From the IMG/VR virus record IMGVR_UViG_3300033463_000024: a stretch of 64,000 bases of DNA. The stretch is one strand, 5' to 3'. Origin of the DNA: a virus. Its lineage: Duplodnaviria > Heunggongvirae > Uroviricota > Caudoviricetes. The position numbers and the translations under genes are program-made. This document shows positions 24,010-63,988 of this stretch, piece after piece (position 1 is the first letter of the stretch; each line of letters begins with the position of its first letter). The notes beneath the pieces were generated by a model. That model had not been told where the DNA came from, made no database searches, and worked only from the letters and a program-made list of their open reading frames with translations.

Positions 24010-24177
24010 AATGCAAGGATGACTTCCGCAAGGTAATCAAGGAAGTCGAGGTGGAACTCTGATGAAGGACCTAGAAAACTACGAATCCGACTGGCTTCTC
24101 TGTGTCGCCGGCATCTTCGACGGTGACAAGACGCCATCCGGCTACGAAATCTTCTGGAAGAAATACTGGGACAGGCT

Positions 24178-24567: not shown

Positions 24568-24585
24568 ACCAAAGGAGTTAACTCG

Positions 24586-24933: not shown

Positions 24934-24937
24934 CTAT

Positions 24938-24972
24938 AAACTGCAAGGGTCACGAACCCTTGCAGTTTTACT
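24938..24972 (+). terminator. hairpin AAACTGCAAGGG-loop-CCCTTGCAGTTTTACT immediately before ATG 24973 (possible attenuator)
   Basis: 12-bp perfect stem followed by T-rich sequence. Confidence 0.5.
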
Positions 24973-25983: not shown

Positions 25984-25997
25984 AAGCCGGATACGTA

Positions 25998-35779: not shown

Positions 35780-36069
35780 TGGAAAGACCGGACGTAAAAT
35801 ACATCATCGTGAATGACTACAGGGACCAGGCCGTACAGAACTGGACCTTTGCCGACAGGAAGCGCATTGTCTATTGCAACAGTGCCGAATAGGCAATGAA
35901 GTTCGCTGGCAAGGCTGGCGCCAAGCGCACCATGGACTACCTGAAGAAGAACTTCCCCGGCCAGGACCTCAGTATCGTAGAAGCAACATTCTACAACGAC
36001 GTTACGTTCAAGGAGGCCAAATGCTAGCATTTTTCACATTTGTGGGAAAGATTTGAAAGGAGAACTCAA

Positions 36070-36717: not shown

Positions 36718-36922
36718 GACGAATGTCGGCACTGCCGCCTATGACAGCGACACTATAATGAAGATTGAATATAACAGGGCAACTGTCGTAGCAAGCATTA
36801 CCTATGCGGCACACAATAAACTAGAACCCAATGTTCTAACCGCCCAACACTATCTCAAATCCGCCAAGGAATTTGACGAGATTCTCAACCAGTGGAAGAA
36901 ATCGAAGGAGACGCCCAAATGA
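36701..36922 (+). CDS. hypothetical protein (73 aa)
   Basis: AAGGA SD; overlaps the kptA stop. Confidence 0.45.
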   Translation: MIIVFRTNVGTAAYDSDTIMKIEYNRATVVASITYAAHNKLEPNVLTAQHYLKSAKEFDEILNQWKKSKETPK

Positions 36923-37422
36923 TGCAGAATATACTTGACTCGGTGGAAAGCTTGGTCATGTTCAAGGCGAAACCCACCCCGGAACAGCAGGTCAAGGAAC
37001 TCGACGAGCAGATCGAGGACCTGAAAAAGAAGCGTCAGCTCGTTATTGACGGGGTGGACAAGAAGTACGTGAACGAGATGCTCTCCCGCATCATGAACCA
37101 ATGGGTCATTGTGGGCGGATGGAACGATGATGACGAGTGTCCGTTCCACGGGCAGCATTACACCATCTACAAGGTCGTGAAGGCCTTGCAGTGGGAAGGC
37201 GGGAACAGCTTCCGTATCATCGCGAAGCACATGATGTACCTGTCCGCCGAAGGATACCTGAACGGTGGCATCTATGAGGTGGATATCAACCGCCGGGTCA
37301 AGGACATCGGGAACCTTGCCGTCATTTCCGCGGAAAAAGCAGCAAGCATTATCAAGAATGCTCGCAAGACAGTGAACAAGCGCCTTGACAGGGCATTGAA
37401 TGAAGCACAGGGGAATATCTAA
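36919..37422 (+). CDS. hypothetical coiled-coil protein (167 aa), paralog of 13574..14059
   Basis: GAAGGAG SD; ATGA overlap. Confidence 0.5.
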   Translation: MMQNILDSVESLVMFKAKPTPEQQVKELDEQIEDLKKKRQLVIDGVDKKYVNEMLSRIMNQWVIVGGWNDDDECPFHGQHYTIYKVVKALQWEGGNSFRIIAKHMMYLSAEGYLNGGIYEVDINRRVKDIGNLAVISAEKAASIIKNARKTVNKRLDRALNEAQGNI

Positions 37423-37832
37423 TGAAGCCGTACAATGAACGTGTTGTGGAAATGAATCATGACCAGGATGGGAATCCATGCACTAGCGCGGCACGTATCC
37501 AACGCTGGATTAACGAGCGCTTGGACTACAAGGACTACACCAATACACTGTTCTCGGTCCTCGTGCTCGATCCATCCTATGAGAAACAGGTGATAGAACT
37601 CATCGAACGCAACTATCCGCACTATACCTACTGCGATACCAAGCTCGGATGCTGGTGTCTCAACGACGACTGGTACGAGTTCTACGCGGACGCAATTACG
37701 GAATGGGACGGGGTCTACCCGGTCAACTGGAACATCGCCGACGTGGTGTTCCTCGAAGAACTGTACCTCAGGCGCAAGATATACATCGATGCCGCTTGGG
37801 TCACCGAGAACGGCCTGAAACCTGTCCACTAA
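37422..37832 (+). CDS. hypothetical protein (136 aa)
   Basis: TAATG overlap. Confidence 0.5.
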   Translation: MKPYNERVVEMNHDQDGNPCTSAARIQRWINERLDYKDYTNTLFSVLVLDPSYEKQVIELIERNYPHYTYCDTKLGCWCLNDDWYEFYADAITEWDGVYPVNWNIADVVFLEELYLRRKIYIDAAWVTENGLKPVH

Positions 37833-37841
37833 GGAGATCCT

Positions 37842-38249
37842 ATGAGCAAGGTTACTCGTGAGCAAATTACGCAAGCTGCACACAAAGCTTGTCAGGTAAA
37901 GCCGAAATACGGGGGTATTTACTCCGTACTATTTACGAATACATTTGATGAGATTCAGGAAGACTTGGAAGCTGCTGTAGAGGTAAACAAGTCTCTCCCG
38001 GACTGTATCACTTCTGTCAGCTGCAGAGCGACCGGCGAAGTGAATGGTATTTTCAAATTCAGTGGCAACTTTACGACGAAAGGTGGGAAGGAAGTCTATG
38101 TGTCAATCAAGGTAGACAGAAGTTCCGCCGAATTCGATATTCATCCGGACTACTGGTCTGAATTCCTCCGGTTATGTGCCGAGCGATTCAAGGATCCTCC
38201 ACCGGAACCAGCCGAAACATATGAAGACATAGTGCGGCGCGAAGGATAG
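37842..38249 (+). CDS. hypothetical protein (135 aa)
   Basis: AAGGAG SD; a terminator follows. Confidence 0.5.
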   Translation: MSKVTREQITQAAHKACQVKPKYGGIYSVLFTNTFDEIQEDLEAAVEVNKSLPDCITSVSCRATGEVNGIFKFSGNFTTKGGKEVYVSIKVDRSSAEFDIHPDYWSEFLRLCAERFKDPPPEPAETYEDIVRREG

Positions 38250-47989: not shown

Positions 47990-48549
47990 ATGGAACCCGT
48001 CTTGTCAAAGAAGTTATTGCGCACCTTGTCAAGCAGCTTGTCAAGCTGGTTACCGGTAAGCACCTGGTCTACCCTGGAAATCCGAAGATCGTTCCCGGTT
48101 GCCACAGAGACCGAAAGCTTGGAGCCACCATACGGAATTTCAAGCTTGTCCTTTCCAGCAACCTTGAGCATCTTTCCCTTGACGGAAACAAACCCATTGC
48201 CAATGAAAATAACCTTTTCGACCTTGGTAATGATGAAATTTTCCTTGATAGGAACACCTTTGCCCATCATCATGGGCAACCGGTCATACTCAAGCACCCA
48301 TTTGTCCCGGTAGAAGTCATCCAGAAGCTTAATGCGGCTAGTCTGGTCATCCTTGGAAACCGTCCGATAATTCTCCTCCGCCACCCGCAATGCCTCCCTG
48401 GCATTTTCAAGCGCCTTCCAAGCCAATTCCTTCTTCGGGTCCGGCTTGGAAAAACGATAGGTCTTAACGGGAACCACTTCCCCGGTCGGAGAGGTGATTG
48501 TAGCAGTCTCGGACTCAAATAAGTCGTTTAACGGGCCGAGCTTGCTCAC
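47983..48549 (-). CDS. hypothetical protein (188 aa; GTG start with a CAGGAGG SD overlapping the PRT stop)
   Basis: SD-supported GTG; there is no in-frame ATG until far downstream. Confidence 0.45.
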   Translation of the reverse strand: MSKLGPLNDLFESETATITSPTGEVVPVKTYRFSKPDPKKELAWKALENAREALRVAEENYRTVSKDDQTSRIKLLDDFYRDKWVLEYDRLPMMMGKGVPIKENFIITKVEKVIFIGNGFVSVKGKMLKVAGKDKLEIPYGGSKLSVSVATGNDLRISRVDQVLTGNQLDKLLDKVRNNFFDKTGSIW

Positions 48550-49940
48550 TGGCAAACCTCCTGCACCTCGTCGATGGAGCTGTAATTGAATGTCCGTTTT
48601 ACGAGTTCCACATGGTCCTGGTCGGGGCACATGGTCTTGCCGATGGAATCGGACAGTTTAACAGCCCAAACCCACGGTGCATCGTTGTGGGCCTTGACCT
48701 TCACAACCTTCATGACCATGGAAAGCGGCTTGCGCTCGGCATTGCCCTTGAACTTCACGATGGAAGCACTGAGGAATGTCCCGATGCCGAAGGCAATCTT
48801 GATACGGAGGTTGAAGTGCTCGGCGATGGCGATGGACTTGTCCACATCGAGACTGTCGCTCCAACAGCCAACCTTGGTGGCCGGGTCAATCTTCAACTTC
48901 TTGTAATGGGCAATGAGCATTTCGCCCCAAGTGTACGGGTTGCCGGAGTCATGCCGGCAGCCATCGAACACCTTGGCATAGAGCTTGCCGCGACGAGAGC
49001 CTGCACCGAAATCTTCGAGGAACGCCTTGAAGCCAAAGTTATCGGACAAGGCAATACCGAGATCACCGCCGAATTCGTGCATCCAGTCTTCAAACACCTG
49101 AGTCTGGCACTTGCGGAGCTTTACATCATCGAGGCCCTGGTAGACCGCGTAAAGCTCATGCGCAAAAGTGCCGATAGCCTTACAACCAAGCTTGATAGCG
49201 AGGTACACATTGGATGTACCCACAAACACGCCCGGAAGTTCCTTCAAGAGGGTGGACACCATGTATTCGTTCCATTCGTCGGATACGCCACGGCGGATAC
49301 CGAAGTCAGAAACGGTAAACTTGATGCCGCGTTCGGATGCTTCCTTCCACTTCTTGATTACTTCGGCAAGGTTACGCTTGGAAGCTTCCCAGTCGATTTC
49401 AAGGTCGTCGAAGTAGAGGTGCTGCACAATCTGCAACACGTAGATTTCAAACCAGTAGACATCCATCTGGGAGCCTTCTGCCCAGATTTTGAGCCCACAT
49501 TCATCGTCCGGATCATATTCGCAGTGAATGTATTCACGCTGCAACTGGAAGCGTTTCAGTTCACGGAGGAAGTCATCATCAATCCACGGTGCAACTTTAC
49601 CAATTCCAGTAAGTTCCCAATCCGTATAGCGGAGGGTGCAAAGGTGGTCGAGTTCGCGATTGATTGCATCGTGCAAGTAATCAAGGCGTACACCCTTGGA
49701 ACGGAGTTTAAACTCCCAGCGGGCCTGTACATTACGGTGCTTGTGGAAGTACAACTGGCCCATGCTGTACTTGTATAAATCGGTTGCAGTCAAATGTTGA
49801 ATAATCCATTTATTCGGGTCCTTTTTCTTGTACTGTTTCGGAAGAGCCGGCGTAATGAGCCTTGCATCCGGCTTGCGACGACCCTTTCTGTTCGGCATTG
49901 CCAAGCTAAGTTTCTTCTTTTCTGTAAGAATCTGTGCCAT
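48546..49940 (-). CDS. nicotinamide/nicotinate phosphoribosyltransferase (NAPRTase family; NadV/PncB-like), with a Lys-rich ~35-aa N-terminal extension
   Basis: TDLYKYSM N-terminal motif, SDFGIRRGVS (PRTase signature) and GTSNV; 464 aa. Confidence 0.7.
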   Translation of the reverse strand: MAQILTEKKKLSLAMPNRKGRRKPDARLITPALPKQYKKKDPNKWIIQHLTATDLYKYSMGQLYFHKHRNVQARWEFKLRSKGVRLDYLHDAINRELDHLCTLRYTDWELTGIGKVAPWIDDDFLRELKRFQLQREYIHCEYDPDDECGLKIWAEGSQMDVYWFEIYVLQIVQHLYFDDLEIDWEASKRNLAEVIKKWKEASERGIKFTVSDFGIRRGVSDEWNEYMVSTLLKELPGVFVGTSNVYLAIKLGCKAIGTFAHELYAVYQGLDDVKLRKCQTQVFEDWMHEFGGDLGIALSDNFGFKAFLEDFGAGSRRGKLYAKVFDGCRHDSGNPYTWGEMLIAHYKKLKIDPATKVGCWSDSLDVDKSIAIAEHFNLRIKIAFGIGTFLSASIVKFKGNAERKPLSMVMKVVKVKAHNDAPWVWAVKLSDSIGKTMCPDQDHVELVKRTFNYSSIDEVQEVCQ

Positions 49941-49952: not shown

Positions 49953-50399
49953 TTAACACCATTCGCCAACCATGAGGTCATATCCCAGGCCCCAGTTGAT
50001 CTTGTTTAATTCCTTGTATTCAACATTTCCCATTTCATCATGTCGAATTTCGGGGACATGCCGATGCAAATGCGTCTTCTGGTCCCATTCGTCCAAAGGA
50101 ACATCGGGTAGTCTGCTTTTCGTCCCGGAATACTTATGCTCCGGCGACAGCTTTCCACGTTCGGTTATGATGGATAGCATTTCTTTCTTAGAAATCCGCT
50201 CACCATATTCATCTTCGATAACGAAACGGCGAGAATTCCATAGTTTTCTCCAATCATCAAGACTCTCGGCTATGCCCGGAATCACATGAAGTGAAAACGC
50301 CCACCCATAGCTCGATTTTCCAATATGGAGTCCATAATTGGACCTATATGGCCAATTATGAGGCAACTCCTTATTTCTCAGATAATAGTTGGTACCCAT
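49953..50399 (-). CDS. hypothetical protein (148 aa)
   Basis: ORF. Confidence 0.5.
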   Translation of the reverse strand: MGTNYYLRNKELPHNWPYRSNYGLHIGKSSYGWAFSLHVIPGIAESLDDWRKLWNSRRFVIEDEYGERISKKEMLSIITERGKLSPEHKYSGTKSRLPDVPLDEWDQKTHLHRHVPEIRHDEMGNVEYKELNKINWGLGYDLMVGEWC

Positions 50400-50402
50400 A
50401 CA

Positions 50403-51029
50403 TCAACCGTCTAGTTTACCAAAGAATGCATTGAACTCAGCTTCCACATCGTTAACAAGGATTGCCTGATATATTTCAAATCCCGTATCTTCACCGGTAT
50501 CCTTTCTGAGCGCATCACAAATCCATTCCATTCGATGCTTCACAATCAATTCAATAGGATTACCGTGGAGCTTGAATGGCGTACGGAGAATGAAGTACGG
50601 ATCGAGTTCGCCGGTGGCATCCTGAAGGTCACAAATGTAGTTAAATTGTGGACCACGTTCCACATGAAAACGCGACTTCCACTGGCCATTTTTATAGAAA
50701 CAACCAACACCATCAAGAAGCCTTCTAGTAGAATGAATCCAGGAATTCAAATCCTTGACCACCCGCATGAGCCAGCGACGCTTCATATTGCGTTTCAAGT
50801 CATGCCTGTACACAAGCTTGTGAAGTTTAAGTTCATGCTGCAAAATACTCTTCGCACTATCATCCACACCGTCTTTCAACGCTTTCTGGATACCATGAAT
50901 ATCCTTGATATTCAAGTTCTGCCACTTAGAAATCCTATCAATTTCCTCTACAGCACGCTCACCGGCGCAGTTACCCCAGTCCTGGATGATTTTCAGTGCC
51001 TTTTTCACTTCTGCAAATGTAAGTTCCAT
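50403..51029 (-). CDS. hypothetical protein (208 aa)
   Basis: ORF. Confidence 0.5.
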   Translation of the reverse strand: MELTFAEVKKALKIIQDWGNCAGERAVEEIDRISKWQNLNIKDIHGIQKALKDGVDDSAKSILQHELKLHKLVYRHDLKRNMKRRWLMRVVKDLNSWIHSTRRLLDGVGCFYKNGQWKSRFHVERGPQFNYICDLQDATGELDPYFILRTPFKLHGNPIELIVKHRMEWICDALRKDTGEDTGFEIYQAILVNDVEAEFNAFFGKLDG

Positions 51030-51040
51030 CTCAAATCTCC

Positions 51041-51841
51041 TTAATTGGCAAAAAACGAATACACGCTAGTTCTTATGGCACCAATCTGAATAGTGCCTTC
51101 CAGCAAGTTTGTATCAACGCCGATTAGTAAATTTAAATGCTTTCGGTATTCATCAGTCAGGAACTCATCAAACATCGTTGTGGGAGGTGTGCACATGACC
51201 ATTTTCTTCATGCACATACCGACAAAGCACTGTGCTGCCATCAAAACATCGCAATCTGCCGGTCTAAGCAGCTGTCTCGTAATAATATCGGCAATCTGAT
51301 GGGAAATTTCCGAATGTTTTTCAAGTGAAACAATTTCATGCGTGTATCTGTTAAGCACATCTTCCATTATTTCAATACGGGCGCAATACATCTCTCGAAC
51401 GAAGATTTTCTGTAAATCCTCGGTAGTCTGTTTGCTCCACATATCCTTGATATCCAGACTGTAATCATAGGTCATGCGTCCGCCGCATCTCTCATATTCA
51501 AAATGAAGCGAATTTCCATTTTCCTGATTGAATGGAATAAGAATCTCATTCACAAATCGTTCAAGATTATTATTATACTCACGAGGGGTAAATTGAGGAA
51601 TCGCAAGTGGAACCACATTACATACGTCATAATGACCGGTTTCCAGGTCAAATTTCATGGAAACTTCAAAAGCATTCACTTGTCCATGGTTCCAACGGAA
51701 GAACAGGTACTTAATGTCCTGAATTTTGTCAGTACGGACGGTCCACGGGTCCTTCTGGAGCTTGATTGCCCAGTGGTAGAACTCAGTTTCCTGTCCATCC
51801 TGGGCAGTGCATCTTACGTCGTCAAATTCACTTTCAGCCAT
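51041..51841 (-). CDS. hypothetical protein (266 aa)
   Basis: GAAGGA SD before ATG 51841. Confidence 0.5.
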   Translation of the reverse strand: MAESEFDDVRCTAQDGQETEFYHWAIKLQKDPWTVRTDKIQDIKYLFFRWNHGQVNAFEVSMKFDLETGHYDVCNVVPLAIPQFTPREYNNNLERFVNEILIPFNQENGNSLHFEYERCGGRMTYDYSLDIKDMWSKQTTEDLQKIFVREMYCARIEIMEDVLNRYTHEIVSLEKHSEISHQIADIITRQLLRPADCDVLMAAQCFVGMCMKKMVMCTPPTTMFDEFLTDEYRKHLNLLIGVDTNLLEGTIQIGAIRTSVYSFFAN

Positions 51842-51842
51842 A

Positions 51843-52103
51843 TTAGTCCTTCGTATCTTCGAGAAGCTGCGGGAGGTCTTCCTGCATCTTCTTTGTAAGT
51901 TTCTGGTAAGCACGGGTCATCGAATCCTCGGAGAAACCGCGCCAGGATGTGCGGGCGGGGTATGCACGGTCGGCGCCTTCATCGTCACACTCAATCACGA
52001 TGCACCACCCGAAGATGTGTAGGAAGGTGTTGATAAAAAGAAGAAGTCCTGTGCTCTGGAACTCCTTCCAAGTGGTCTCTTTCGGCGTCGTGTACAGTGC
52101 CAT
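51843..52103 (-). CDS. small membrane protein (86 aa)
   Basis: AAGGA SD; the longer ORF would overlap the tRNA. Confidence 0.45.
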   Translation of the reverse strand: MALYTTPKETTWKEFQSTGLLLFINTFLHIFGWCIVIECDDEGADRAYPARTSWRGFSEDSMTRAYQKLTKKMQEDLPQLLEDTKD

Positions 52104-52121
52104 GTTGTCATCCTTTGCTAA

Positions 52122-52194
52122 AGCGGGAGACGAGATTCGAACTCGCGACCTAGGCAATGGGAATGCCTCGCTCTACCACCTGAGCTACTCCCGC
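52122..52194 (-). tRNA. tRNA-Gly (anticodon CCC); CCA not encoded
   Basis: cloverleaf folded by hand: acceptor GCGGGAG/CTCCCGC, D-arm GCTC/GAGC, anticodon stem AGGCA/TGCCT with loop TTCCCAT, T-arm GCGAG-TTCGAAT-CTCGT. Confidence 0.85.
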
Positions 52195-52450
52195 ATGGTG
52201 GGCCTCCGTGGTAAATCACGTCACGGTAACGGGTGGTCCAACCGTTTCCCCTTTTACCCCAGGGGAAGGGTGCCTAATTTCTTCCTTATGGGAGCGAATT
52301 TCCAGAAAGGGGAAAGGCATCCCCCGCCGCATGATATCTGCATGGGCACAGAACCATTTACTGATGATTCAGGACCGCTCATCGGCTGCCTGGTCATGAC
52401 CCCAAGCGACACTCCACTGATTCTTGTGGCAGAACGGACGACTGTTATCC

Positions 52451-52480
52451 CGAATATAGCAAATTTCCAGCCATATCGGA
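52451..52480 (-). promoter_or_regulatory. promoter-like box AAATTTGCTATATTCG (minus) about 260 nt upstream of the tRNA
   Basis: variant consensus without a clear GTTGCC element. Confidence 0.35.
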
Positions 52481-52495
52481 GGATTTTCCTAAATT

Positions 52496-53302
52496 TTATT
52501 TCAAGTCAATGATTGGCATGATTTTGTCATTGGCCACAACGTCGGGGAGCTCGCCATTCCAGGTTTCAATCCACTGCAACGTGATATATTCCTTGCTGTT
52601 TTGCTGCTTTAACGCCTTGAGACGGGTGGCAATTACTACAGAATCAGCCTTGGCAGCAATAACCTTGGCAGCAGAATCAGCCTTGGCAGCAATCTTCTTC
52701 TGTTCATTCTGGTATTCAACAGCCTTAAGGATATTCTTTTCCTTCAAGGAATTCTGTTCAGCAATCTGCTTATCCAAGATACTCTTGTTAAACTGGGCGT
52801 CAAACTTGAATTCATAGATGGTAAAGCCGTCAAGAATGATATGGGAATTGGCTGAATCCAGTTTGTTACGCAAAGCCTGTTCCATACGGCGACGGACTTC
52901 TTCACGCTTCTGCAACATTTCTTCTGCAACATATTGTGGGGTAACACCGGTAATGGTTTCACGCATCTTCGGCTGCAAGATAGTCACGACCGCATCAGTA
53001 CCGAACTGGCCATACACTTCATCAACCTTCTTTGGATCAATATGATAGTTCACGTTGACCCCGACGGTAACTTCCTGCATGTCCTTTGAGCCGGCACCGA
53101 CCCGCATGGTTTCAAGCTGCGTCTTGACCGGAATCTTGACCACCTTCTCAGTGATGACATTGTAGAAGTTGAGACCAGGTTCCATTGTTTCGCTCACCTT
53201 ACCGAAGTTGAGAACGACACCGCGTTCAGTTTGGTCGATCTGGGAGCATCCAGTGAACGCGAAGAGGATGAGAATTGCTAAAAATGCAATGATTTTTTTC
53301 AT
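52496..53302 (-). CDS. SPFH/band-7 (prohibitin/HflK-like) lipoprotein; signal peptide plus lipobox FTGC
   Basis: MKKIIAFLAILILFAFTGCSQ followed by ERGVVLNFGKV...PGLNF, typical of the SPFH domain. Confidence 0.7.
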   Translation of the reverse strand: MKKIIAFLAILILFAFTGCSQIDQTERGVVLNFGKVSETMEPGLNFYNVITEKVVKIPVKTQLETMRVGAGSKDMQEVTVGVNVNYHIDPKKVDEVYGQFGTDAVVTILQPKMRETITGVTPQYVAEEMLQKREEVRRRMEQALRNKLDSANSHIILDGFTIYEFKFDAQFNKSILDKQIAEQNSLKEKNILKAVEYQNEQKKIAAKADSAAKVIAAKADSVVIATRLKALKQQNSKEYITLQWIETWNGELPDVVANDKIMPIIDLK

Positions 53303-53321
53303 GTTGTTTTATCCTTGTTTG

Positions 53322-53765
53322 TTAAAAATTCGAAATAGGCTGTGCTTGCTTCTGGATGGCATCCAGTTCACTGATACAGGCCTTCAAATGGTCAATATCC
53401 GACTTGTGCCCGTCATCAAGCTCGCACTGGTCAAGAAAAGACTGCTTGACTTTGAGCTCGCCGACAAACATGCGGTAAAGTTCATAGGCATAGCGGAAGC
53501 GATTCTTCTGTGTCGCACCGCCATGGCACGGAACATTCTTGCGGTCTTTCTTCTCGGCATCCCGCATGATAGCTTTAAGTTCCTTGCCAAGACGCTTCTT
53601 GTCGCTTTTCGTCATGAGCAGGGTAGCCTGTTCATACTGTGCACAGCAGATAAGCTTGGCAAAATCGCTCGTAATCTTGGGCTTCGATTCACGTGTACCC
53701 AGGATTTCCCATACAACCCCGATGCCGAAAAGCACGATTGCGATAATGGTAATGATGTCGGTCAT
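53322..53765 (-). CDS. membrane protein (N-terminal TM; 147 aa) next to the SPFH gene; NfeD-like partner?
   Basis: AAAAGGAG SD before ATG 53765; the longer ORF N-terminus is junk-like. Confidence 0.45.
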   Translation of the reverse strand: MTDIITIIAIVLFGIGVVWEILGTRESKPKITSDFAKLICCAQYEQATLLMTKSDKKRLGKELKAIMRDAEKKDRKNVPCHGGATQKNRFRYAYELYRMFVGELKVKQSFLDQCELDDGHKSDIDHLKACISELDAIQKQAQPISNF

Positions 53766-53778
53766 TTGATTACTCCTT

Positions 53779-54141
53779 TTAGTGATGACTGATGTCACCG
53801 GACATTGTGTTAATATTACCCGAAACGGAACCACCCACGTCCACGTCGCCGGAACTTGTTTCAATATTGCCGGCACTTCCGCCGATTGTAATGTCGCCGC
53901 TAGAGCTTGTGCAGTTTCCTGCATCGCCAGTAACCTTGATGTATCCGGAACTTGTTGTAACAGAGCCGACCGTACCTTCGATTGAAATGTTGACAACCTT
54001 TTCCTTGCAGACAATCACTTCATCGCCAACAATGATGTTGTCACCATCAATCGTGATGCTTGAACCCGACGGGGCCTTGATTGTCTTTCCATTGATTTGG
54101 ATGCAATTTCCATTGATGCTATTACATACCAAGATAGCCAT
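53779..54141 (-). CDS. bactofilin-like (polymer-forming beta-helical repeat) protein (120 aa)
   Basis: G/S/T/D/I-rich repeats (..GDITIGGSAGNIETSSGDVDVGGSVSGNI..); AAGGAG SD. Confidence 0.5.
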   Translation of the reverse strand: MAILVCNSINGNCIQINGKTIKAPSGSSITIDGDNIIVGDEVIVCKEKVVNISIEGTVGSVTTSSGYIKVTGDAGNCTSSSGDITIGGSAGNIETSSGDVDVGGSVSGNINTMSGDISHH

Positions 54142-54520
54142 TGATTCTCCTTAACGTTTCCTTATCCATAAATTTACTATCAGTCAGCAATGCTGTCACC
54201 TTGTCAAGAAAGACCCTAAACGGTATGCTGATCCACCTGACATGATTTTTCGGGTCATTGTGCGAATCTTCTCCAAACGGGTTCAATAGTTCCATGTGCC
54301 AGCACTTGTCCTTCGGCCATTTAATATGATGCTCCACTGTAAGAACAACCGGAGCAACCACCGACTCACTATCTTTCGGATACATCTTAATCCGAGAAGA
54401 GTCATCGGAAACTTCAATGCCATATTCGTCAGTTTCCCTTGCAATAGCCTGCTTGATTTCATCTTCGGTAAACTTATCCTGGATAAAATCATTAAATATT
54501 CTGCCAAGTACACCTTCCAT
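54122..54520 (-). CDS. hypothetical protein (132 aa)
   Basis: ORF. Confidence 0.45.
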   Translation of the reverse strand: MEGVLGRIFNDFIQDKFTEDEIKQAIARETDEYGIEVSDDSSRIKMYPKDSESVVAPVVLTVEHHIKWPKDKCWHMELLNPFGEDSHNDPKNHVRWISIPFRVFLDKVTALLTDSKFMDKETLRRINGYLGM

Positions 54521-55074
54521 TAAATTTCCTCCGGGTGTTCAAACGTTATAATTACTTCCACATTGTGGTCGTACGTCGTCATGGAACGAGTCTCATACCA
54601 CCTATTGTTAGTATCGTCGATGAGGATAAACTCATCGGTTTCGGTGTTATCTATTCTTGACGGGAAACTAGTTTCATCCATGGCTTGCTGCACGAAACAC
54701 ATCTGTTTATTTAATCCATAGCGATTCATTGCACCAGGGATATGCAGGTCATCGATTTCCAGTTCATCCTTAGTATTGACCCACTTATGCTTGTAAGCAC
54801 ACTCGATAGAATCATCCTTGGTCCATACCCGACCACGATTTTCCGCCGGAATTTCCAGTGCGTCGAATAGCCACTTTACGACGTAATCCCGAATTTCATC
54901 CTTAGTCTTCCACCCCCAAGTAAACAAACTTACCTTGACGGGCATTCCATGTTCATGTTCAGCAATTTTTTCCAAGACATAGCTTGAAATTCGCTTACAT
55001 TGCTCCTCCAAAAGCGTACAACTGTACAAGTCGTCAATGAGCGTATTCTCGATGTCTATAAATATTTCCGTCAT
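54520..55074 (-). CDS. putative HAD-like phosphatase (motif FIDIENTLID at the N-terminus; DxExT variant)
   Basis: starts 3 nt after the promoter box; motif call is weak. Confidence 0.4.
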   Translation of the reverse strand: MTEIFIDIENTLIDDLYSCTLLEEQCKRISSYVLEKIAEHEHGMPVKVSLFTWGWKTKDEIRDYVVKWLFDALEIPAENRGRVWTKDDSIECAYKHKWVNTKDELEIDDLHIPGAMNRYGLNKQMCFVQQAMDETSFPSRIDNTETDEFILIDDTNNRWYETRSMTTYDHNVEVIITFEHPEEI

Positions 55075-55077
55075 GTT

Positions 55078-55110
55078 CCAAATATAGCAAATGCCGGCAT
55101 TGCCGGCAAC
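55078..55110 (-). promoter_or_regulatory. conserved promoter GTTGCC-N13-TTTGCTATATTTGG
   Basis: consensus copy. Confidence 0.6.
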
Positions 55111-55184
55111 TATATGCAATCCTAGATTTTATGGAACCCGAAGCCAGGCCCATCCATCATGAAACGCTGTCCGCTCAGTTCTTC

Positions 55185-56525
55185 TTGACATACTCCCACG
55201 ACTAAAGTCGTGGGATTCTGGGAGTTGCCACAGATGGGCAACATGTCCCAAAGGTAGATGCCCCTACCTTACATAAGTTACGGGCGGCATTTCTATCCCT
55301 ATCGTGTTCCGCACCACAGCTAGGACATATCCAATGACGGATAGATACATCCTTTAGGTCGTGGTTCTGATAACCACATTCGGAGCATAATTGCGACGAT
55401 GGATACCACTTATCGGCGTACATTACGGTCTTACCAGTCTTATGAGCTACATATTCGAGAATACTCAAGAAAGCATTGAACCCGAAATCGTACATAGACT
55501 TCTTGTACTTCTTGGATAGGTTGGCCAAGTCTAGCGTCTCAAACACCATAACATCGTAGTCTCGGCAGAACTGCCGAGCCAACTTCCAGTGCATATCGGA
55601 ACGCTGATTGGCTACTTTCTCGTGTAGCTTCTGCAATGTACGCAGCGAACCTCGCTTACCCTTGCTCTTTCGGTATTTTTCTGATAGGTTTCTCAATGAT
55701 TTGAGGTTCTTCTGCAATATTTTAGGCATACTACAATCGTCGCCGTTAGAGGAAACCAAGAAGTCGTGCAGACTGAAGTCGAAACCAACGATTTCACCCG
55801 ATTTAGTCCACTCTGTCTGTGTACATTCTTGCTCAACGACGATGTATATGTAGAATCCGTTGCTCTTGCGTTTGACAGTTAAGGTCTTGACCTTGCCATC
55901 AAAATCCCTGCTGTTCCAGTAGGGAAAATCCTTCTTGCATATCTTAACTCTGTTAAAGTCGTGGAATTTATATCCAGCTTGCTTCGTTGTGAATGAACGG
56001 TATTTAGCCGTCTTCTGAAAGTGAGGCGGATTGGTCTTCTTTCCAGCCTTCAAGTTCAAGAAGAACAACCGATATGCTCGGTCTATCCTATCTGTGATGT
56101 CTTGAATGGCTTGCGACGGAACCTCATTCCACTCTGGATATTGTCTCTTCAGTTTGGTTAAGTGCTTCTGCAACTGGTATTTATTAAGCATCTTATGATA
56201 GATACCGTAGTACCGACGGTGCAGAGCAATGCAGTGGTTGTATATCCGTCCAGCAACTACAAGTATATTGTTGAGATACCTTAGAGCATCTCGATTGTAC
56301 AGCTTGTACTTGTATGTCTTCAATTCAACCATAGATAAGCAAATGCCCACAGAACGCTTAATTTGCCCGTCAGCATTCCGTGGACATTTAAAATCTAACC
56401 TTGATAGGAGGACGGGCAAGAACTCTTATCATAGAGAAGTTTATAACAATCTATAAAAACTTTTCTTAATTGGCAACCATTTTCATCATCCCACGGCTGA
56501 AGCCGTGGGCTTTCCGTTCAGCGTA
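55185..56525 (-). mobile_element. IS200/IS605-family (IS1341-type, tnpB only) insertion element; subterminal hairpins CCCACGACT-TTA-AGTCGTGGG (55195..55214) and CCCACGGCT-GA-AGCCGTGGG (~56497..56516)
   Basis: TnpB ORF flanked by two near-identical hairpins; boundaries approximate. Confidence 0.6.
55202..56332 (-). CDS. tnpB: TnpB (IS605 OrfB) RNA-guided RuvC nuclease, with a zinc finger
   Basis: RuvC-I GFDFSL, RuvC-II VFETLDL, CSECG...CPSCG zinc finger and RuvC-III DRDRNAARNL; N-terminus TYKYKLYN. Confidence 0.85.
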   Translation of the reverse strand: MVELKTYKYKLYNRDALRYLNNILVVAGRIYNHCIALHRRYYGIYHKMLNKYQLQKHLTKLKRQYPEWNEVPSQAIQDITDRIDRAYRLFFLNLKAGKKTNPPHFQKTAKYRSFTTKQAGYKFHDFNRVKICKKDFPYWNSRDFDGKVKTLTVKRKSNGFYIYIVVEQECTQTEWTKSGEIVGFDFSLHDFLVSSNGDDCSMPKILQKNLKSLRNLSEKYRKSKGKRGSLRTLQKLHEKVANQRSDMHWKLARQFCRDYDVMVFETLDLANLSKKYKKSMYDFGFNAFLSILEYVAHKTGKTVMYADKWYPSSQLCSECGYQNHDLKDVSIRHWICPSCGAEHDRDRNAARNLCKVGASTFGTCCPSVATPRIPRL

Positions 56526-56574
56526 AAATTCAGGTGTTTGCATTTCGGCGCAGTTACCTTATGCAGCCATTTCC

Positions 56575-56883
56575 TTATTGCTTCGAACATTCGGACTCCC
56601 ATTTTTCAATGAATTTAACCATGTCGTCAGTCATCGGGATAGGATGCAATATGTCATCGCCGTACCAGCGGCCCTTTACACGAGCCTGAAGGCACAGATT
56701 GATGTCATGTTCCCATTCATCCTCGGAAATATTCCAGTCAGCCGGCGGCTTATTGGGTAAATGGAAAATAGGTTCAATAATAGAATGGTCATGCACATTC
56801 TTAGCCAGGTGATAACTACGAAAACCGCCTGCAACGCCAATAACCAGATTTGGCAGAGGTATGTCAGGAAACATCTTGTGCAT
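56575..56883 (-). CDS. hypothetical protein (102 aa)
   Basis: GGGGGA SD. Confidence 0.45.
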   Translation of the reverse strand: MHKMFPDIPLPNLVIGVAGGFRSYHLAKNVHDHSIIEPIFHLPNKPPADWNISEDEWEHDINLCLQARVKGRWYGDDILHPIPMTDDMVKFIEKWESECSKQ

Positions 56884-56885
56884 GG

Positions 56886-57965
56886 CTATCCCCCGATCGT
56901 CTTGATGTAATCTTCAAGGATTTGGTTATGGTGGAACGCCAAGTGAGCCTTGCGGGCTACGCTCAACGGGAACCATGCTGCCTCGGCAGCATCGTCGTCA
57001 CCCTTGACTGCCCCGAAAATCCCACGAACATAGACACCCACGTCATACGCCCAGTGTCCAGGAACATTCTCGCGAGGGTCTTCCGGGATATACACCTTCA
57101 ATTGGTGAACCTGATTAGGGTAGAGTACAAGCCCCGTTTCCTCATGGAGTTCACGACAGCTGCAATTCTCGATGGGTTCATGCGGATTGGTAAAGCCACC
57201 AGGGAGACACCAGTAGTTAGCGAACGGCCAGCGCTTGCGGCGCACTAGAAGCACCTGGTCCTCTCGACCAATGGTAGGTTCGCCAATGCTGTTGATAACC
57301 ACGGAAGTCACCGTAACCGAAGGTTTTGGATAATCGCCTGGCTTGTAGTTGGCAAGTTCCTGATGTTCAGTGTTCCAATGTATTAGCGGATTATCCTGGT
57401 GATATAATCCATGCTGGAAAATATACCCAAGAACTTGCGGCGAAACCGACATTCCCCCATACATGGGGTTCATGAGCATGTCACTACGGACAGCTGTGGA
57501 CGACACATCGGGAACATTTACGAAAATAGGGTTGATATCGCCTCGGGTACCAAGTTCCGTATGGAAATTGAAGTTTTTTCCACGGTTGAATACACGGATG
57601 CTGTACTTGTCGATGAGCTTGTCAGAATCTTTCCACTTGCCGGCCAGAAGGGCTTCAAGCTCATCCATGCCGATAATGAGGTCAATGTCCGGATTCTTGT
57701 TCTCGGATCCGGAAACATATGTTCCATACACTGTTTCGAGATTATCGAAGGTACGAACCGACTGCTTATGGATGTTCAGTTTCGGAAACCGGGCAATCAA
57801 CATGCCATAACGGTCCTGGAATGATGCATTGTACTGTTTTTCATCATTGTCGGTCACATAGACATGGACTTCCGGGTAGTTTTCCAAAAGATACTGAATA
57901 ATTGCCTCATGGGCAACGGTAAGCGGGTCAAATGCGCCGCCATAAACTGCAATCTTGTGTTCCAT
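56886..57965 (-). CDS. nadM: bifunctional NMN adenylyltransferase / Nudix ADP-ribose pyrophosphatase (NadM-Nudix)
   Basis: N-terminal IAVYGGAFDPLTVAH nucleotidyltransferase motif; C-terminal Nudix box GGFTNPHEPIENCSCRELHEETGL. Confidence 0.8.
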   Translation of the reverse strand: MEHKIAVYGGAFDPLTVAHEAIIQYLLENYPEVHVYVTDNDEKQYNASFQDRYGMLIARFPKLNIHKQSVRTFDNLETVYGTYVSGSENKNPDIDLIIGMDELEALLAGKWKDSDKLIDKYSIRVFNRGKNFNFHTELGTRGDINPIFVNVPDVSSTAVRSDMLMNPMYGGMSVSPQVLGYIFQHGLYHQDNPLIHWNTEHQELANYKPGDYPKPSVTVTSVVINSIGEPTIGREDQVLLVRRKRWPFANYWCLPGGFTNPHEPIENCSCRELHEETGLVLYPNQVHQLKVYIPEDPRENVPGHWAYDVGVYVRGIFGAVKGDDDAAEAAWFPLSVARKAHLAFHHNQILEDYIKTIGG

Positions 57966-57968
57966 AAT

Positions 57969-58259
57969 TTACCAATTCTTTATCCCGGCTGGGTAAGATT
58001 CATCAAATTTAACATAATATGTGCCTTTATATCCCCGTTCAATGGCAGTTTTAACGAACTGAATCGCGTCTTTTTCCGATTTAAACTTCACTTCTCGCCA
58101 TGATTCGGAATACATTTCAAAAGCACCCATGGCAAACTCGGCTACCATCAGCCTATAACGGATCCAGTAACCAAATATAAACCAGCCATGCTTCCACTGT
58201 GGTATCCACCAGTCGTCAATCTTCTTGACGCGATGCTTCTTATCAATGTAAGTCGTCAT
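57969..58259 (-). CDS. hypothetical Trp-rich protein (96 aa)
   Basis: ORF. Confidence 0.45.
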   Translation of the reverse strand: MTTYIDKKHRVKKIDDWWIPQWKHGWFIFGYWIRYRLMVAEFAMGAFEMYSESWREVKFKSEKDAIQFVKTAIERGYKGTYYVKFDESYPAGIKNW

Positions 58260-59069: not shown

Positions 59070-59103
59070 CCAAAATGTAGCAAAATGGGCAGAAGGTGGC
59101 AAC
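59070..59103 (-). promoter_or_regulatory. conserved promoter GTTGCC-N13-TTTGCTACATTTTGG
   Basis: exact consensus copy; abuts the stop of the upstream gene. Confidence 0.65.
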
Positions 59104-61625
59104 TAGTCCTTCACCAGGAACAAAAACCGTCTGCGGGAGTTTGTAAACTTGTTGTACTGTATGAAGCCCTCGTCGGTAATGTACTGCCCATCGCCGACCA
59201 TAAGTCTCTCTTCTTGCCGTTCGGTCTCAGTGTGCATTATGAGCTGGTCGCCAACAAGATCAACCCTTGCCGACCTAAACCAATGAATCTGCGTTTTCAC
59301 GTTCCCATCAGTGTCAAGCAAGTCCGTGATACATACTTCCTGCGACACAAACGGGGCCACATTGCCAAATGTTGAATTTTGAATAAACCCGGTGTCTTGG
59401 CCAGCAATTTTAACCAATGAACCAAACCCCATCAAGTCCCGCATGATATCCGGCGCACTCTTTCCAGTTTCCCGGATTTCATCATCCTCATCCTCGTTAC
59501 TGTGAACTATGTCGCACCTTCCCTGGTCAGTCGTAATATACAGAGATGGATATGAATCATCCTTATGTAATTGTTTCGGTATCCTGACACCGCACATGGT
59601 AAACGCACGGCCATTAGACCAGGAATTGGAGCATATTTTGTTGCAATTTCCAGCACCGCTTCGAATAACCTTTCCACCCAACGCCGAATACAGGCGATAC
59701 AGGTCATCAATGGTTGGCAAGTGCCAGCCGTCCGGTATGGTCTCCTTGATATCCGCATGCGAATACAATACACCCCGCGAACCATCTTCAGCCGTCACGC
59801 TGACGGTAATGGACGGATTGAGAGCGCGTATAATCGCTTCCGTCTCCGGGGTTAAAGCATCCGCCTTGTATCTATATGTGACGAGTTCCCTTGCCTTACC
59901 AAACTGTAAATAGTTACGCGAATGCGGCGTGTTGGAATGGGTCAATAATATAAGTGACGCTCGGCCATATGTGCCGGAGTTGCCTACCTGGTCGGTTATC
60001 CTAAACTCCCCAATACCCCGGCCATTGGTATATTCCTTAACAAGCATATCGGTAACAACTGTAACACTCGTCTCGTCATGCGGGAGGTTCGCTTTCTCCA
60101 GTGCATCACGCACGGTTCGCTCACGTTCATCACGCACTTGTGCCCAGTAGTTGTCAGCCTGGCCAAAATCAAGACATGACGACAAGTCCTCTAATAAAGA
60201 GCCATCGATGATGGTATCGCCTATCTTGACCCCTTCAAGAAACACGTTATATATCGCATCATACACATCTATGTTGCCACCCATACTAACATAGCATCTG
60301 GAGGAAGTCTTTACCACATAGTTATTCGGCATATCATGGTGAACATACACCGAATCATTAACCCGGCCATTGCATTCATGCGTTATGACATTTGCCGTCT
60401 CAGCATCGGCAGGATGTTGCCAGTCAATCGAACATGTCAGTCCTTCTTCTGTGCGGGTAACACACAGGATCGGAAGGAATACCTTGATTTCCGGGCGTAC
60501 GGGGCATAGTATGGTTTCCAGTTTTTTCAGATTTGCCGGAATTTCCGGAATTTTCGTTGGAGAGTACTTGAGTGGTTCGGCCATCCACGTCCTGCCTCCA
60601 ATAGTCTCCGTACGGTAGGTCTTGCCATCCCTCTTGTCAGTGAATGTTCCGGACCGGCGAATGCGGTTCTTGCCAAGGCATATACTCTTAGTAATCTTCT
60701 TCCTATCAGCAATCACCTTGGCATTGTTTGTAAGTCGCTCCTCGCGCATGCGGACCGCCAGCTCACGATATGTATCATGCCCATAGGGTGGGCATAGTTC
60801 AAAGAATGGGCCACCAAGCAAGTCCGAAAGTTCAACCTCGTCGTACTTGTTGTCGCCCTTGCGGACATCCACATTGTCATGGGCATGGTTCCACCGGTTA
60901 TTCACATGGACTAGACGGCCACCGGGCCCGATGTCGATACCCAGCATGGATTCGCCATACAGTTCATCGCTTTCGGTCAAATTCTCGAAACCAGGAAGAA
61001 CGGCCAGGTAAAGTTTCACCGGCAGCTTCTTATCCCCGGCACTGGCCATCCGATAATGGTCAAACATGCTCTGTGAATTGAGGTGGCACCACACATGCGG
61101 CTGGGTGTATTCGGCATATTTGTTCGCCGTTTCAAATTCATCAAGAGGGATTATCTCATAACGTCTCTGTCCATACTTCCGTCTGCGGAGCATGCGTCGC
61201 ATCGCGCTCCATTGCTTGGCTATCCTCTGGCCATATATTTCATCAAGTTCCTTGAATGACGGGCGTCTACCGTCAATACCAAGATAACGGTCATACTCAC
61301 TCGAATGGGCAATGGAAATAATGCGAATTATGTCATGAAGACGGCCAATCGGCCCCGGTTCTTCATCACCTGTACCAAGCGACAATTCGCCAAACGCAAT
61401 TCTTGCGGCACCCGGCGCGAAACGGATCTTGCACTGTCCGTCCCTGAAAAAGTGGGTACGGACCTCCTGGTATGCTGCACGGGTCCAGGAAGAAATCCCC
61501 CTTTTCTGGGCAATTTCCTCATAGATAGTCTGCAGCCGCCCCCTGTTGGGTAGGGCCATCAGGACCTTCTTGGTGTAGCGGTAGGCATCGCCTTCTGAAC
61601 CATGTGCAGTTTCGTTCGGTAGCAT
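59103..61625 (-). CDS. large protein (840 aa) with a Fibrobacter-succinogenes-major-paralogous-type domain (FTDKRDGKTYRTETIGGRTWMAEPL ... DGWHLPTIDDLYRL)
   Basis: domain signature recognised in the translation; N-terminal ~330 aa unassigned. Confidence 0.6.
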   Translation of the reverse strand: MLPNETAHGSEGDAYRYTKKVLMALPNRGRLQTIYEEIAQKRGISSWTRAAYQEVRTHFFRDGQCKIRFAPGAARIAFGELSLGTGDEEPGPIGRLHDIIRIISIAHSSEYDRYLGIDGRRPSFKELDEIYGQRIAKQWSAMRRMLRRRKYGQRRYEIIPLDEFETANKYAEYTQPHVWCHLNSQSMFDHYRMASAGDKKLPVKLYLAVLPGFENLTESDELYGESMLGIDIGPGGRLVHVNNRWNHAHDNVDVRKGDNKYDEVELSDLLGGPFFELCPPYGHDTYRELAVRMREERLTNNAKVIADRKKITKSICLGKNRIRRSGTFTDKRDGKTYRTETIGGRTWMAEPLKYSPTKIPEIPANLKKLETILCPVRPEIKVFLPILCVTRTEEGLTCSIDWQHPADAETANVITHECNGRVNDSVYVHHDMPNNYVVKTSSRCYVSMGGNIDVYDAIYNVFLEGVKIGDTIIDGSLLEDLSSCLDFGQADNYWAQVRDERERTVRDALEKANLPHDETSVTVVTDMLVKEYTNGRGIGEFRITDQVGNSGTYGRASLILLTHSNTPHSRNYLQFGKARELVTYRYKADALTPETEAIIRALNPSITVSVTAEDGSRGVLYSHADIKETIPDGWHLPTIDDLYRLYSALGGKVIRSGAGNCNKICSNSWSNGRAFTMCGVRIPKQLHKDDSYPSLYITTDQGRCDIVHSNEDEDDEIRETGKSAPDIMRDLMGFGSLVKIAGQDTGFIQNSTFGNVAPFVSQEVCITDLLDTDGNVKTQIHWFRSARVDLVGDQLIMHTETERQEERLMVGDGQYITDEGFIQYNKFTNSRRRFLFLVKD

Positions 61626-62743: not shown

Positions 62744-63988
62744 TTAAAAATTCTTCCATTCCATCGGAAGGATATTTTTAGAGAGTTCGACTGCAAACTC
62801 GTCGATTTCTTCCGGCGTATAGGCCTTTTCCTTTAATCCGGATGCGGCAAAAGCCTTGTTAACTTCCTTGCCAAGTGCACCGATATAGTCGATGATGTCG
62901 TCAAACGTCCAGTCACCATTCTTGATTGCAAGGAGGAAATCGCGGTCATTGCTGTACGGGTGCTTGTTGTAATCCATACAGACCATGTTGCACAAATCCT
63001 TATCAGCGCGGTAGACCGGGACGGTATGCTCGGTGGCGATACCGTAAGCGGTAAGGAGCAGACGGACACAGTGCATGATGTTCTTCGCATCGTAGCCTTG
63101 GCCATGCTTCAACGTGGTGTTGTAGCGTTCCTCGTTACGGGACTTGACCCAATCCCAATACTCGTGCCACTTCTTGCATTTACGTGCAAAGTCGTTGCGG
63201 TTCACGAAGATATGGGCAACGGAGCTCAAACCCTTTGGGATGGAGTTGAGTTGGATATCATCGCTGCGCTCGATGTCACGGACGACACCATAGCCCCAAC
63301 GCCACTTGTGCTCGGGAAGCTGACGGACACCCTTGAATACCTTGGAGAGACATTTCCGGACGAATTTGTGGATACTGATGGACAGCGGCTTCTTCTGGAA
63401 ATACACCGCGTAGATGCAATCGCCATGGTCGATCCGGGCGATGGAGAACCAACGCTGGACTTCTTCCGGCTTGCCGCGATAATTGGCCTTAATCCATTCC
63501 ATGAGGGGAGTGGCGAGGTTGCCATCGAGGACATAGATGAAATCGACGAAACGCGGGCGCCTCTCCGGCTGCGGATCGAATACCTTCTTGTTCAGGCCCT
63601 TCGCACGGTCAACCTGGCCACGGGCATACTCGCAGAACGACTTGTCACAACGCATGGTGAGGAAGTCAAATTTCTTTCGGAGGATTTCGAGGATAGACTG
63701 GCCCACAAATACGCAATGCTTCGGAGCATAGAGCATTTCGAGGGCCTGGGGATTGGCGGAGTTCAACTCGGTAAGGAACTTCGTGATGTCCCAGTAGACC
63801 TCGTTGTTCTTCTCGTCGGCAATCTGGCTCGGGGCATCGTGCTTGATGCGCTCGCTCCATTTCAGGATATACACACCGTGAATGTCCACATCGGAAGTCT
63901 CGGTGGCAAGACCGAACGACTGCGAACCCGCGGCCACCTTGATGAGGAGGATACCCTTTTCATGGACCCTCTTCTCGGTTTCGGACAT
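62744..63988 (-). CDS. Pol-beta-superfamily nucleotidyltransferase, RlaP-like (RNA-repair-pathway NTase); GSQSFGLATETSDVDIHGV
   Basis: hG[GS]x9-13DxD NTase signature at the N-terminus; 414 aa. Confidence 0.5.
   Translation of the reverse strand: MSETEKRVHEKGILLIKVAAGSQSFGLATETSDVDIHGVYILKWSERIKHDAPSQIADEKNNEVYWDITKFLTELNSANPQALEMLYAPKHCVFVGQSILEILRKKFDFLTMRCDKSFCEYARGQVDRAKGLNKKVFDPQPERRPRFVDFIYVLDGNLATPLMEWIKANYRGKPEEVQRWFSIARIDHGDCIYAVYFQKKPLSISIHKFVRKCLSKVFKGVRQLPEHKWRWGYGVVRDIERSDDIQLNSIPKGLSSVAHIFVNRNDFARKCKKWHEYWDWVKSRNEERYNTTLKHGQGYDAKNIMHCVRLLLTAYGIATEHTVPVYRADKDLCNMVCMDYNKHPYSNDRDFLLAIKNGDWTFDDIIDYIGALGKEVNKAFAASGLKEKAYTPEEIDEFAVELSKNILPMEWKNF

Follow-up and report, generated by a model that had tools for sequence, protein, structure and literature searches.

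The analysed stretch of DNA (64,000 nucleotides, termed the window in the following) belongs to IMG/VR virus record IMGVR_UViG_3300033463_000024, a member of the Caudoviricetes. Its positions 52496-54141 are taken up by three consecutive minus-strand open reading frames (ORFs) with nothing else inside, just as an initial annotation of the sequence had listed them. Our analyses point to three accessory genes that are neighbours but separable in function, and that form part of a long co-directional array on a large mobile element; this element is most likely a huge phage. One of them, the SPFH gene, would encode a cage-forming protein and act as a single-gene moron. We hold this reading to be probable, with appreciable room for doubt. 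The SPFH gene is the only one of the three with an assignable mechanism.

Encoded at 52496-53302 (minus strand, 268 amino acids) is, judged from its sequence, a genuine prohibitin-type SPFH protein with a conserved lipobox. Pfam PF01145 (Band_7) matched with an E value of 3.9e-27 and 95.9 bits against a cutoff of 23.6, and residues 21-194 aligned with profile positions 2-167 of 176. In PHROGs the protein is assigned to phrog_200, 'lipoprotein' (1.5e-41). The SPFH domain (residues 21-194) is followed by a coiled-coil and by a conserved C-terminal W-x-G-x-LP motif. When the family profile was compared with the sequences of solved structures, the eukaryotic prohibitins PHB1 and PHB2 came closest, with E values of 1e-32 to 1e-30 and alignments that cover the SPFH domain and, beyond it, the coiled-coil, reaching profile positions 223-235 of 257; HflK followed at 1e-12, and then stomatin, HflC and QmcA. 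The protein is neither an HflK orthologue (45.5 and 44.9 bits on the NCBIfam HflK models, with cutoffs of 660 and 159.4) nor an HflC equivalog (12.9 bits against an NCBIfam cutoff of 427). The window holds no second SPFH gene and hence no HflK-HflC pairing. Within the coding region of the coiled-coil lies a short, imperfect in-frame tandem repeat (52639-52694, minus strand; period 15-18 nt, about three copies), and the resulting AAKADS...AAKADS duplication forms a clade-specific insert of 11 amino acids relative to most homologues.

The initial annotation had also predicted an FTGC lipobox, which our comparison of homologues confirmed. Lipoboxes were recognised as [LVI...][ASTVI][GAS]C after an n-region and an h-region, within the first ~35 residues. 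In the window protein, the stretch AILILFAFTGC (residues 9-19) comes after MKK, and Cys19 fits this PROSITE-type rule; signal peptide and lipobox together (MKKIIAFLAILILFAFTG, then the cysteine) are encoded at 53246-53302 on the minus strand. The AFTGC lipobox with Cys19 is kept in 24 of 26 diverse homologues, the glycine at position -1 being invariant and the cysteine at least 90% conserved, and the two homologues that lack it retain an uncleaved hydrophobic anchor. The Pfam LPAM_1 match of the N-terminus is weak (E = 0.13), and residue +2 is a serine. The N-terminal membrane anchor typical of the SPFH family is accordingly present as a signal peptide with predicted lipidation at Cys19.

Prohibitin is exposed to the mitochondrial intermembrane space and HflK/C to the periplasm, and both form ring or cage oligomers that enclose FtsH-family proteases together with a patch of membrane. 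By analogy, the window protein would be exported and lipid-modified at Cys19, as its lipobox implies, so that the SPFH domain and coiled-coil would face the periplasm in a topology equivalent to that of prohibitin and HflK/C. There it could form a homo-oligomeric, lipid-anchored cage, as family knowledge suggests. Such a cage might sequester or modulate a host envelope protein, with FtsH as the leading candidate, or lend stability to the membrane while infection proceeds. Superinfection exclusion by the lipoprotein would be a plausible alternative output of the same structure.

The SPFH gene would act as a moron that phages exchange on its own. It moves by itself and occupies at least six different phage or prophage neighbourhoods. 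At 27 loci the SPFH protein has at least 45% identity, and these loci fall into at least six unrelated surroundings, among them a second huge-phage lineage (431-kb contig), a 416-kb IMG/VR contig in which a T4-type terminase N-domain is encoded 1.7 kb away from SPFH, ~42-kb elements that also have a ParB-like gene, and contigs of Fibrobacter metagenome-assembled genomes (MAGs). Relatives as close as 45-99% identity come exclusively from uncultured rumen-type phages and Fibrobacter MAGs. With tblastn, 43 phage records matched the protein, and its identity to the SPFH proteins of isolated phages is 24-32%. In isolated phages the gene is found among early or accessory genes and has no recurrent partner: in Acinetobacter phage nACB2 it has rIIB in its vicinity, in GAP32 it sits with early genes that have sigma-70 promoters, and in Burkholderia phage CSP3 it comes after the replication genes. 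A listing of SPFH genes from T4-like phages dates from 2006 (PMC1524935), and the CSP3 gene has been discussed as an HflC-like moron (PMC10269572). Our literature search brought up no experiments on phage SPFH proteins and nothing that connects SPFH with anti-phage defence. When IMG/VR was scanned with patterns from single proteins, neither the SPFH nor the beta-helix protein gave a match; an alignment-based SPFH scan gave the IMG/VR loci.

Along the minus strand the three genes are read in the order 53779-54141 (120 amino acids, beta-solenoid protein), 53322-53765 (147 amino acids, transmembrane (TM) protein) and 52496-53302 (SPFH protein). All three are real genes. Each has an AAGGAG-type Shine-Dalgarno sequence ahead of it, the intergenic spacers measure 13 and 19 nt, and pairwise ratios of nonsynonymous to synonymous substitution (dN/dS) against four relatives reveal purifying selection on all of them (0.10-0.30; 0.10-0.20 for the SPFH gene). 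The true start of the 147-aa gene is the ATG at 53765, where all homologues begin; the mechanical ORF opens at TTG 54014. No terminator-like site was found to separate the three genes; in shuffled sequence, such sites and promoter-like ones were at least as frequent as in the real one. The beta-solenoid gene overlaps by 20 nt an upstream gene of 132 amino acids (54122-54520, minus strand), whose start in turn overlaps (TAATG) the stop of a gene of ~184 amino acids (54520-55074, minus strand). The latter probably starts at ATG 55074, as in relatives that open with MTEIFIDIENTL; neither gene has an assigned function. Since the beta-solenoid gene overlaps its upstream neighbour and the co-directional array extends past 52496-54141 on both sides, the 'one cluster' of the initial annotation is an arbitrary cut. 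None of the three proteins or of five neighbouring proteins matched a PADLOC defence model.

The idea of a cooperating SPFH-bactofilin pair or trio found no comparative support, because co-occurrence is restricted to one syntenic lineage, insertions split the trio, divergence is discordant and the families occur separately. The order beta-helix, TM, SPFH is kept in the lineage loci L001-L006 and L012; in these, however, the whole neighbourhood of 12-16 kb is co-linear, and the kept order is therefore uninformative on functional linkage. In L109, a more divergent lineage member on a 224-kb IMG/VR contig, the trio is split. Genes for a PNKP-type HAD phosphatase (3110-3589), a 172-aa protein and a 3-TM protein sit between the beta-helix and TM genes, leaving a gap of 1.6 kb, and an AAA_21/AAA_15-like ATPase gene (5102-5956; AbiEii/OLD-type P-loop) sits between the TM and SPFH genes; these positions appear to be hot spots of gene insertion. 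The beta-helix gene of L109 still lies beside the 132-aa gene, with the ~184-aa gene upstream of that, and the 132-aa gene adjoins it in every lineage member that covers the region. When L012 is compared with L109, the SPFH gene has a dN of 0.046, the TM gene one of 0.29 and the beta-helix gene one of 0.40; with L001 in place of L109, dN is 0.004 for the beta-helix gene and 0.089 for the SPFH gene. Such discordant divergence indicates recombination between the genes.

To the lineage we added 159 further loci of this SPFH subfamily (80 from bacterial genomes and 79 from IMG/VR; ~170 loci in all). Hidden Markov models (HMMs) of the TM and beta-helix proteins, applied within 6 kb of SPFH, matched in L109 alone among the 159, and across the ~170 loci the two genes stand near SPFH only in the window's own syntenic lineage. 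Distant beta-helix homologues have neither an SPFH neighbour nor a recurrent TM neighbour; in L007 such a homologue adjoins a gene for a large Laminin_G-like protein, and in L008 a tail spike and a terminase. The wider beta-helix and SPFH families are each abundant without the other. Homology clustering of the ORFs that flank SPFH revealed no neighbour family that recurs beyond single lineages. By these comparisons the trio is not a conserved module, and its adjacency is best described as a historical feature of one lineage.

For the 147-aa protein, a role as the small membrane partner in the position of NfeD had been proposed. A single strong N-terminal hydrophobic helix is indeed present (residues 4-22), and an AlphaFold2 model with a mean predicted local distance difference test (pLDDT) score of 82 places a TM helix at residues 2-23, followed by a compact all-alpha domain with pLDDT ~90. 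The likeness to NfeD did not hold. NfeD is defined by a C-terminal OB-fold beta-barrel domain; the 147-aa protein lacks a match to NfeD PF01957 and is all-alpha, and we hence rejected this identity. Neither an OB fold nor any other fold match was found for the model, and Pfam, PHROGs, NCBIfam and PADLOC gave no match. In the alpha-helical bundle, C114, H120 and C130 are invariant. A word-indexed search returned 12 homologues, all at least 58% identical, and an exhaustive HMMER search of 1.84 billion cluster representatives gave 12 matches, four of them below 1e-10. The charges flanking the TM helix are -1 on the N side and +2 on the C side, for which the positive-inside rule predicts an N-out/C-in orientation. 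The soluble domain would then probably be cytoplasmic and lie on the opposite side of the membrane from the SPFH lipoprotein, and the protein would therefore be no NfeD analogue. Among the ~170 loci of the SPFH subfamily, an NfeD-like neighbour was seen in one, where it scored below the Pfam cutoff, and an iterative search seeded with it found no further ones. The 147-aa protein is best described as an orphan, lineage-specific bitopic membrane protein with a predicted cytoplasmic helical domain.

The 120-aa protein had been called beta-helical and bactofilin-like. Its beta-helical fold is supported by an AlphaFold2 model (pLDDT 81.6, predicted template modelling score 0.72), which is all-beta with two strands per repeat. 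The protein belongs to phrog_3163 (9.7e-21), a family with no assigned function; of its homologues we collected 40, nearly all of 105-160 amino acids. Family members share an N-terminal INGKT motif and three to six repeats centred on T-x-S-G-D-[IV], and the window copy has four TSSG[DY][IV] repeats with a period of 16-17, starting at residues 63, 79, 95 and 112. As it has neither a signal peptide nor a TM segment, the protein is probably cytoplasmic.

The bactofilin part of the claim failed in the profile search that the initial annotation had itself named as its refutation. At E values up to 1 the 120-aa protein had no Pfam match, PF04519 included. Foldseek of the model against the PDB gave nothing significant (bactofilin match 6ria at E = 1.0, the Toastrack example 4opw at E = 1.8); bactofilins ranked 26th and 50th among the fold matches, after many unrelated solenoids. 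The family profile likewise found nothing meaningful at E values up to 1 among the sequences of solved structures. The membrane-targeting N-terminus of bactofilins has the consensus MFSKKKK (PMC12448750); the 120-aa protein opens with MAILVCNSIN, has no lysine or arginine in its first 10 residues and lacks such a sequence. Only three of 35 family members have an N-terminus of this kind, and at least one of these extensions may be a mis-called start. With no profile match, no membrane-targeting N-terminus and only generic beta-solenoid fold matches, bactofilin membership is unsupported.

A Pfam scan of the same 35 family members yielded two matches to DUF4097/Toastrack (best 6.5e-8), two to Bactofilin (best 1.3e-5) and one to LiaF-like_C. 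The sole member to pass a curated cutoff was P0037 on DUF4097, with 32.7 bits against 22.9; the best bactofilin score (P0010, 25.8 bits) stayed below its cutoff of 27.9, and the weak LiaF-like_C match of P0011 was also below cutoff. From these matches the 120-aa protein leans, weakly, towards a Toastrack/DUF4097-like rather than a bactofilin relationship. In unrelated phages, distant members of phrog_3163 adjoin a cell-wall hydrolase (3938-4930 in L011, Klebsiella phage KB57), an Amidase_2 endolysin (4951-6420 in L010) and a tail spike (6001-8199 in L008), which hints at an envelope or lysis-related role of the family. For both the 120-aa and the 147-aa protein, protein binding or scaffolding is a likely function.

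In the initial annotation, the three proteins formed a membrane-remodelling module in which an SPFH scaffold, an NfeD-like partner and a bactofilin-like polymer organise host microdomains, be it for superinfection exclusion, as an assembly platform or for protection from abortive infection. The genes do lie side by side on a common strand with short spacers and no predicted terminator between them, their order is kept in eight of nine lineage loci, and all three products plausibly belong to membrane-associated classes (PMC11237479). We nevertheless consider the module unlikely: its presumed NfeD is all-alpha and without a PF01957 match, with a soluble domain probably in the cytoplasm while the SPFH domain would be periplasmic; its presumed bactofilin lacks the profile match and the membrane-targeting N-terminus and has generic solenoid fold matches only; and the trio occurs at no other SPFH locus and at no distant beta-helix locus, is interrupted by inserted genes in L109 and diverges discordantly. 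An association limited to the TM and beta-solenoid genes, with SPFH unrelated, would have the bitopic protein anchor a Toastrack-like solenoid under the inner membrane, as a split version of a TM-plus-Toastrack envelope-stress architecture. In its favour, a cytoplasmic location is predicted for both soluble domains, P0037 scores above the DUF4097 threshold, and bacterial Toastrack domains are typically C-terminal to TM domains (PMC11237479). Yet this pairing seems rather improbable, given that three unrelated genes and 1.6 kb separate the two genes in L109, that distant beta-helix homologues have no recurrent TM neighbour, that the beta-helix gene is tied more tightly to the 132-aa gene by their 20-nt overlap, and that the window protein itself lacks a DUF4097 match. 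One may even speculate that in this lineage a periplasmic prohibitin-like cage, a single-pass protein and a sub-membrane Toastrack-like solenoid platform are coupled into a trans-membrane envelope-buffering device. It would be analogous to the PSP/Lia networks of bacterial envelope stress, in which Band-7, TM and Toastrack components are combined again and again, and could keep the host membrane energised while a 400-kb phage goes through its long infection cycle, or blunt abortive-infection effectors that act on the membrane; we deem this quite unlikely. A lysis pair, in which the TM protein and the lipoprotein mimic an i-spanin and o-spanin (Rz/Rz1) with the beta-helix protein as lysis accessory, would match the gene order, TM protein then lipoprotein, and the cell-wall hydrolases beside beta-helix homologues in Klebsiella phage KB57 and L010. 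It is very improbable, however, as the lipoprotein is a 268-aa SPFH protein and no short o-spanin, the TM protein is predicted N-out/C-in, the reverse of an i-spanin, and has a compact bundle instead of a long coiled-coil, and no endolysin or holin was identified adjacent to the trio in Pfam and PHROGs scans. A two-component spanin was rejected on topology and size.

Several points also weigh against our own reading of separable accessory genes on a huge phage with a cage-forming SPFH moron. Tight spacing, the lack of a terminator-like site between the genes and the order kept in eight of nine lineage loci mean that the three genes may be co-expressed and may interact in this lineage, and a Band-7 protein, a single-pass TM protein and a Toastrack-like beta-helix all represent classes linked to membrane-proximal processes (PMC11237479). 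Our neighbour analysis used ORF-level BLAST and HMM clustering and may have overlooked partners of very high divergence. Homology is the basis for the cage, for lipidation, for the membrane concerned (inner or outer) and for FtsH as client. Finally, 27 window ORFs searched against PHROGs and 17 against Pfam gave no structural or packaging match, and most had no PHROG match, so that the phage identity rests on the syntenic IMG/VR and 398-kb contigs and not on genes of the window. These searches would also suit a non-phage, megaplasmid-like extrachromosomal element that carries SPFH as an ordinary cellular-type envelope gene. This, too, is unlikely in our view: the syntenic L109 is an IMG/VR viral genome, a T4-type terminase is encoded 1.7 kb away from close SPFH relatives (416-kb IMG/VR contig), and the PHROG matches, NAD-salvage pair, tRNA and dense co-directional small ORFs are typical of huge phages.

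Of the phage setting assumed in the initial annotation, a mobile-element context stands, and the syntenic relatives, which include the 224-kb IMG/VR contig (L109) and a 398-kb contig, make a phage the most likely carrier. Phage-like features of the context are a tRNA, a TnpB gene, small co-directional genes in dense packing, and genes with PHROG matches of the Nampt-like, NMNAT/Nudix and nucleotidyltransferase kinds. Among 50,697 phage records, none was near-identical to positions 50000-58000 by megablast, and most scanned window ORFs are orphans. The element is probably a huge phage, as far as sequence comparison can tell, and most likely one of ~400 kb that infects rumen Fibrobacter. The closest cellular-genome matches of the SPFH protein are in Fibrobacter MAGs, with 60% and 57% identity, as compared with ~32% elsewhere. 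An 840-aa ORF (59103-61625, minus strand) without a PHROG match contains a sub-threshold fragment of Fib_succ_major (E = 1.6e-5, 25.7 bits against a cutoff of 33.9), the Fibrobacter succinogenes major paralogous domain. The source assemblies of the syntenic relatives carry labels that we take to be those of rumen studies. Taken together, the nearest SPFH proteins, the domain fragment and the labels suggest Fibrobacter as host.

Around the trio, several further genes can be assigned. A tRNA-Gly(CCC) gene (52122-52194, minus strand) follows ~300 nt downstream of the SPFH gene and is kept there in all four lineage relatives scanned (L001, L004, L012 and L109); in L001 it is doubled (7455-7527 and 7867-7939). 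The ~300-nt spacer between the SPFH and tRNA genes contains no significant Rfam family (CRISPR-DR57 at E = 0.13 is below threshold), and its folding is not unusual (z = -0.85). The block that holds the trio is flanked by a Nampt/NAPRTase-like gene (48546-49940, minus strand; phrog_448) and a bifunctional NMNAT-Nudix gene (56886-57965, minus strand; phrog_1198 and phrog_395). Phages use an NAD+ reconstitution pair to counter NAD-depleting defences. The two flanking genes resemble such a pair. The region may serve as an island of accessory or counter-defence genes. A TnpB/IS605 OrfB-type gene (55202-56419, minus strand; phrog_506, 2e-82) separates the NMNAT-Nudix gene from the ~184-aa gene. It looks like a recent insertion because L004 and L012 have no TnpB gene at the corresponding position; other TnpB copies occur elsewhere in L002 and L013. 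The gene at 62744-63988 (minus strand) encodes a 414-aa nucleotidyltransferase (phrog_388, 5.9e-34), which probably belongs to the CCA-adding or poly(A) polymerase family and would suit a huge phage with a tRNA gene; the second huge-phage lineage (L013), too, has a PolyA_pol gene close to SPFH. At 22001-26000 and 36001-38000 the GC content is raised (0.52) and the AT skew strongly positive (~+0.2); plus-strand ORFs lie in these two stretches, while the minus strand dominates elsewhere in the window.

Useful results are modest even if our reading is true. Phage SPFH genes have been annotated since 2006, the three-part module is unsupported, and no new class of system emerges. Phage SPFH proteins might then best be viewed as periplasm-facing cages of the prohibitin/HflK type that are exchanged as single genes, which would suggest that they target FtsH-family proteases of the host or the stability of its envelope. 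The phrog_3163 proteins represent a widespread family of small phage beta-solenoids, sometimes found beside cell-wall hydrolases and tail spikes. As long arrays stay co-linear within a lineage, gene adjacency in huge phages is weak evidence for a functional module.

Among known systems, PHB1/PHB2 and HflK/HflC resemble the window protein most closely. They share with it an SPFH domain followed by a coiled-coil, are its best matches among the sequences of solved structures, and have the bulk of the protein on the extracytoplasmic or equivalent intermembrane-space side, as is predicted here. In contrast, their anchor is an N-terminal TM helix and that of the window protein a lipobox lipid, and they form hetero-oligomers whereas the window SPFH is a single gene without a paralogous partner. 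The SPFH-NfeD operons (such as stomatin PH1511-PH1510, QmcA-YbbJ and FloT-NfeD2) also have a small membrane-protein gene directly beside the SPFH gene, but the neighbour in the window has no NfeD domain or OB fold and probably occupies the other side of the membrane. Bactofilins wind as a triangle with three strands (2N3D), as opposed to the two strands per repeat in our model.

The Toastrack beta-helix has a characteristic intertwined N-terminal seven-stranded region (4QRK, 4OPW). The superfamily comprises DUF4097, DUF2154/LiaF_C and DUF2807, and its bacterial domains, which were proposed to be intracellular, typically stand C-terminal to single- or multi-TM domains (PMC11237479). The 120-aa protein is Toastrack-like in its repeated T-S-S-G-D-[IV] turn motif, in the matches of its relatives P0037 and P0011 and in its predicted intracellular location. 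It differs in that it has no profile match itself, amounts to about half a Toastrack domain, is not fused to PspC, LiaF-TM or another TM domain, and belongs to an essentially phage-borne family. The SPFH genes of isolated phages, finally, are of the same family as the window gene, and like it they stand alone as accessory genes, placed among early or moron genes.

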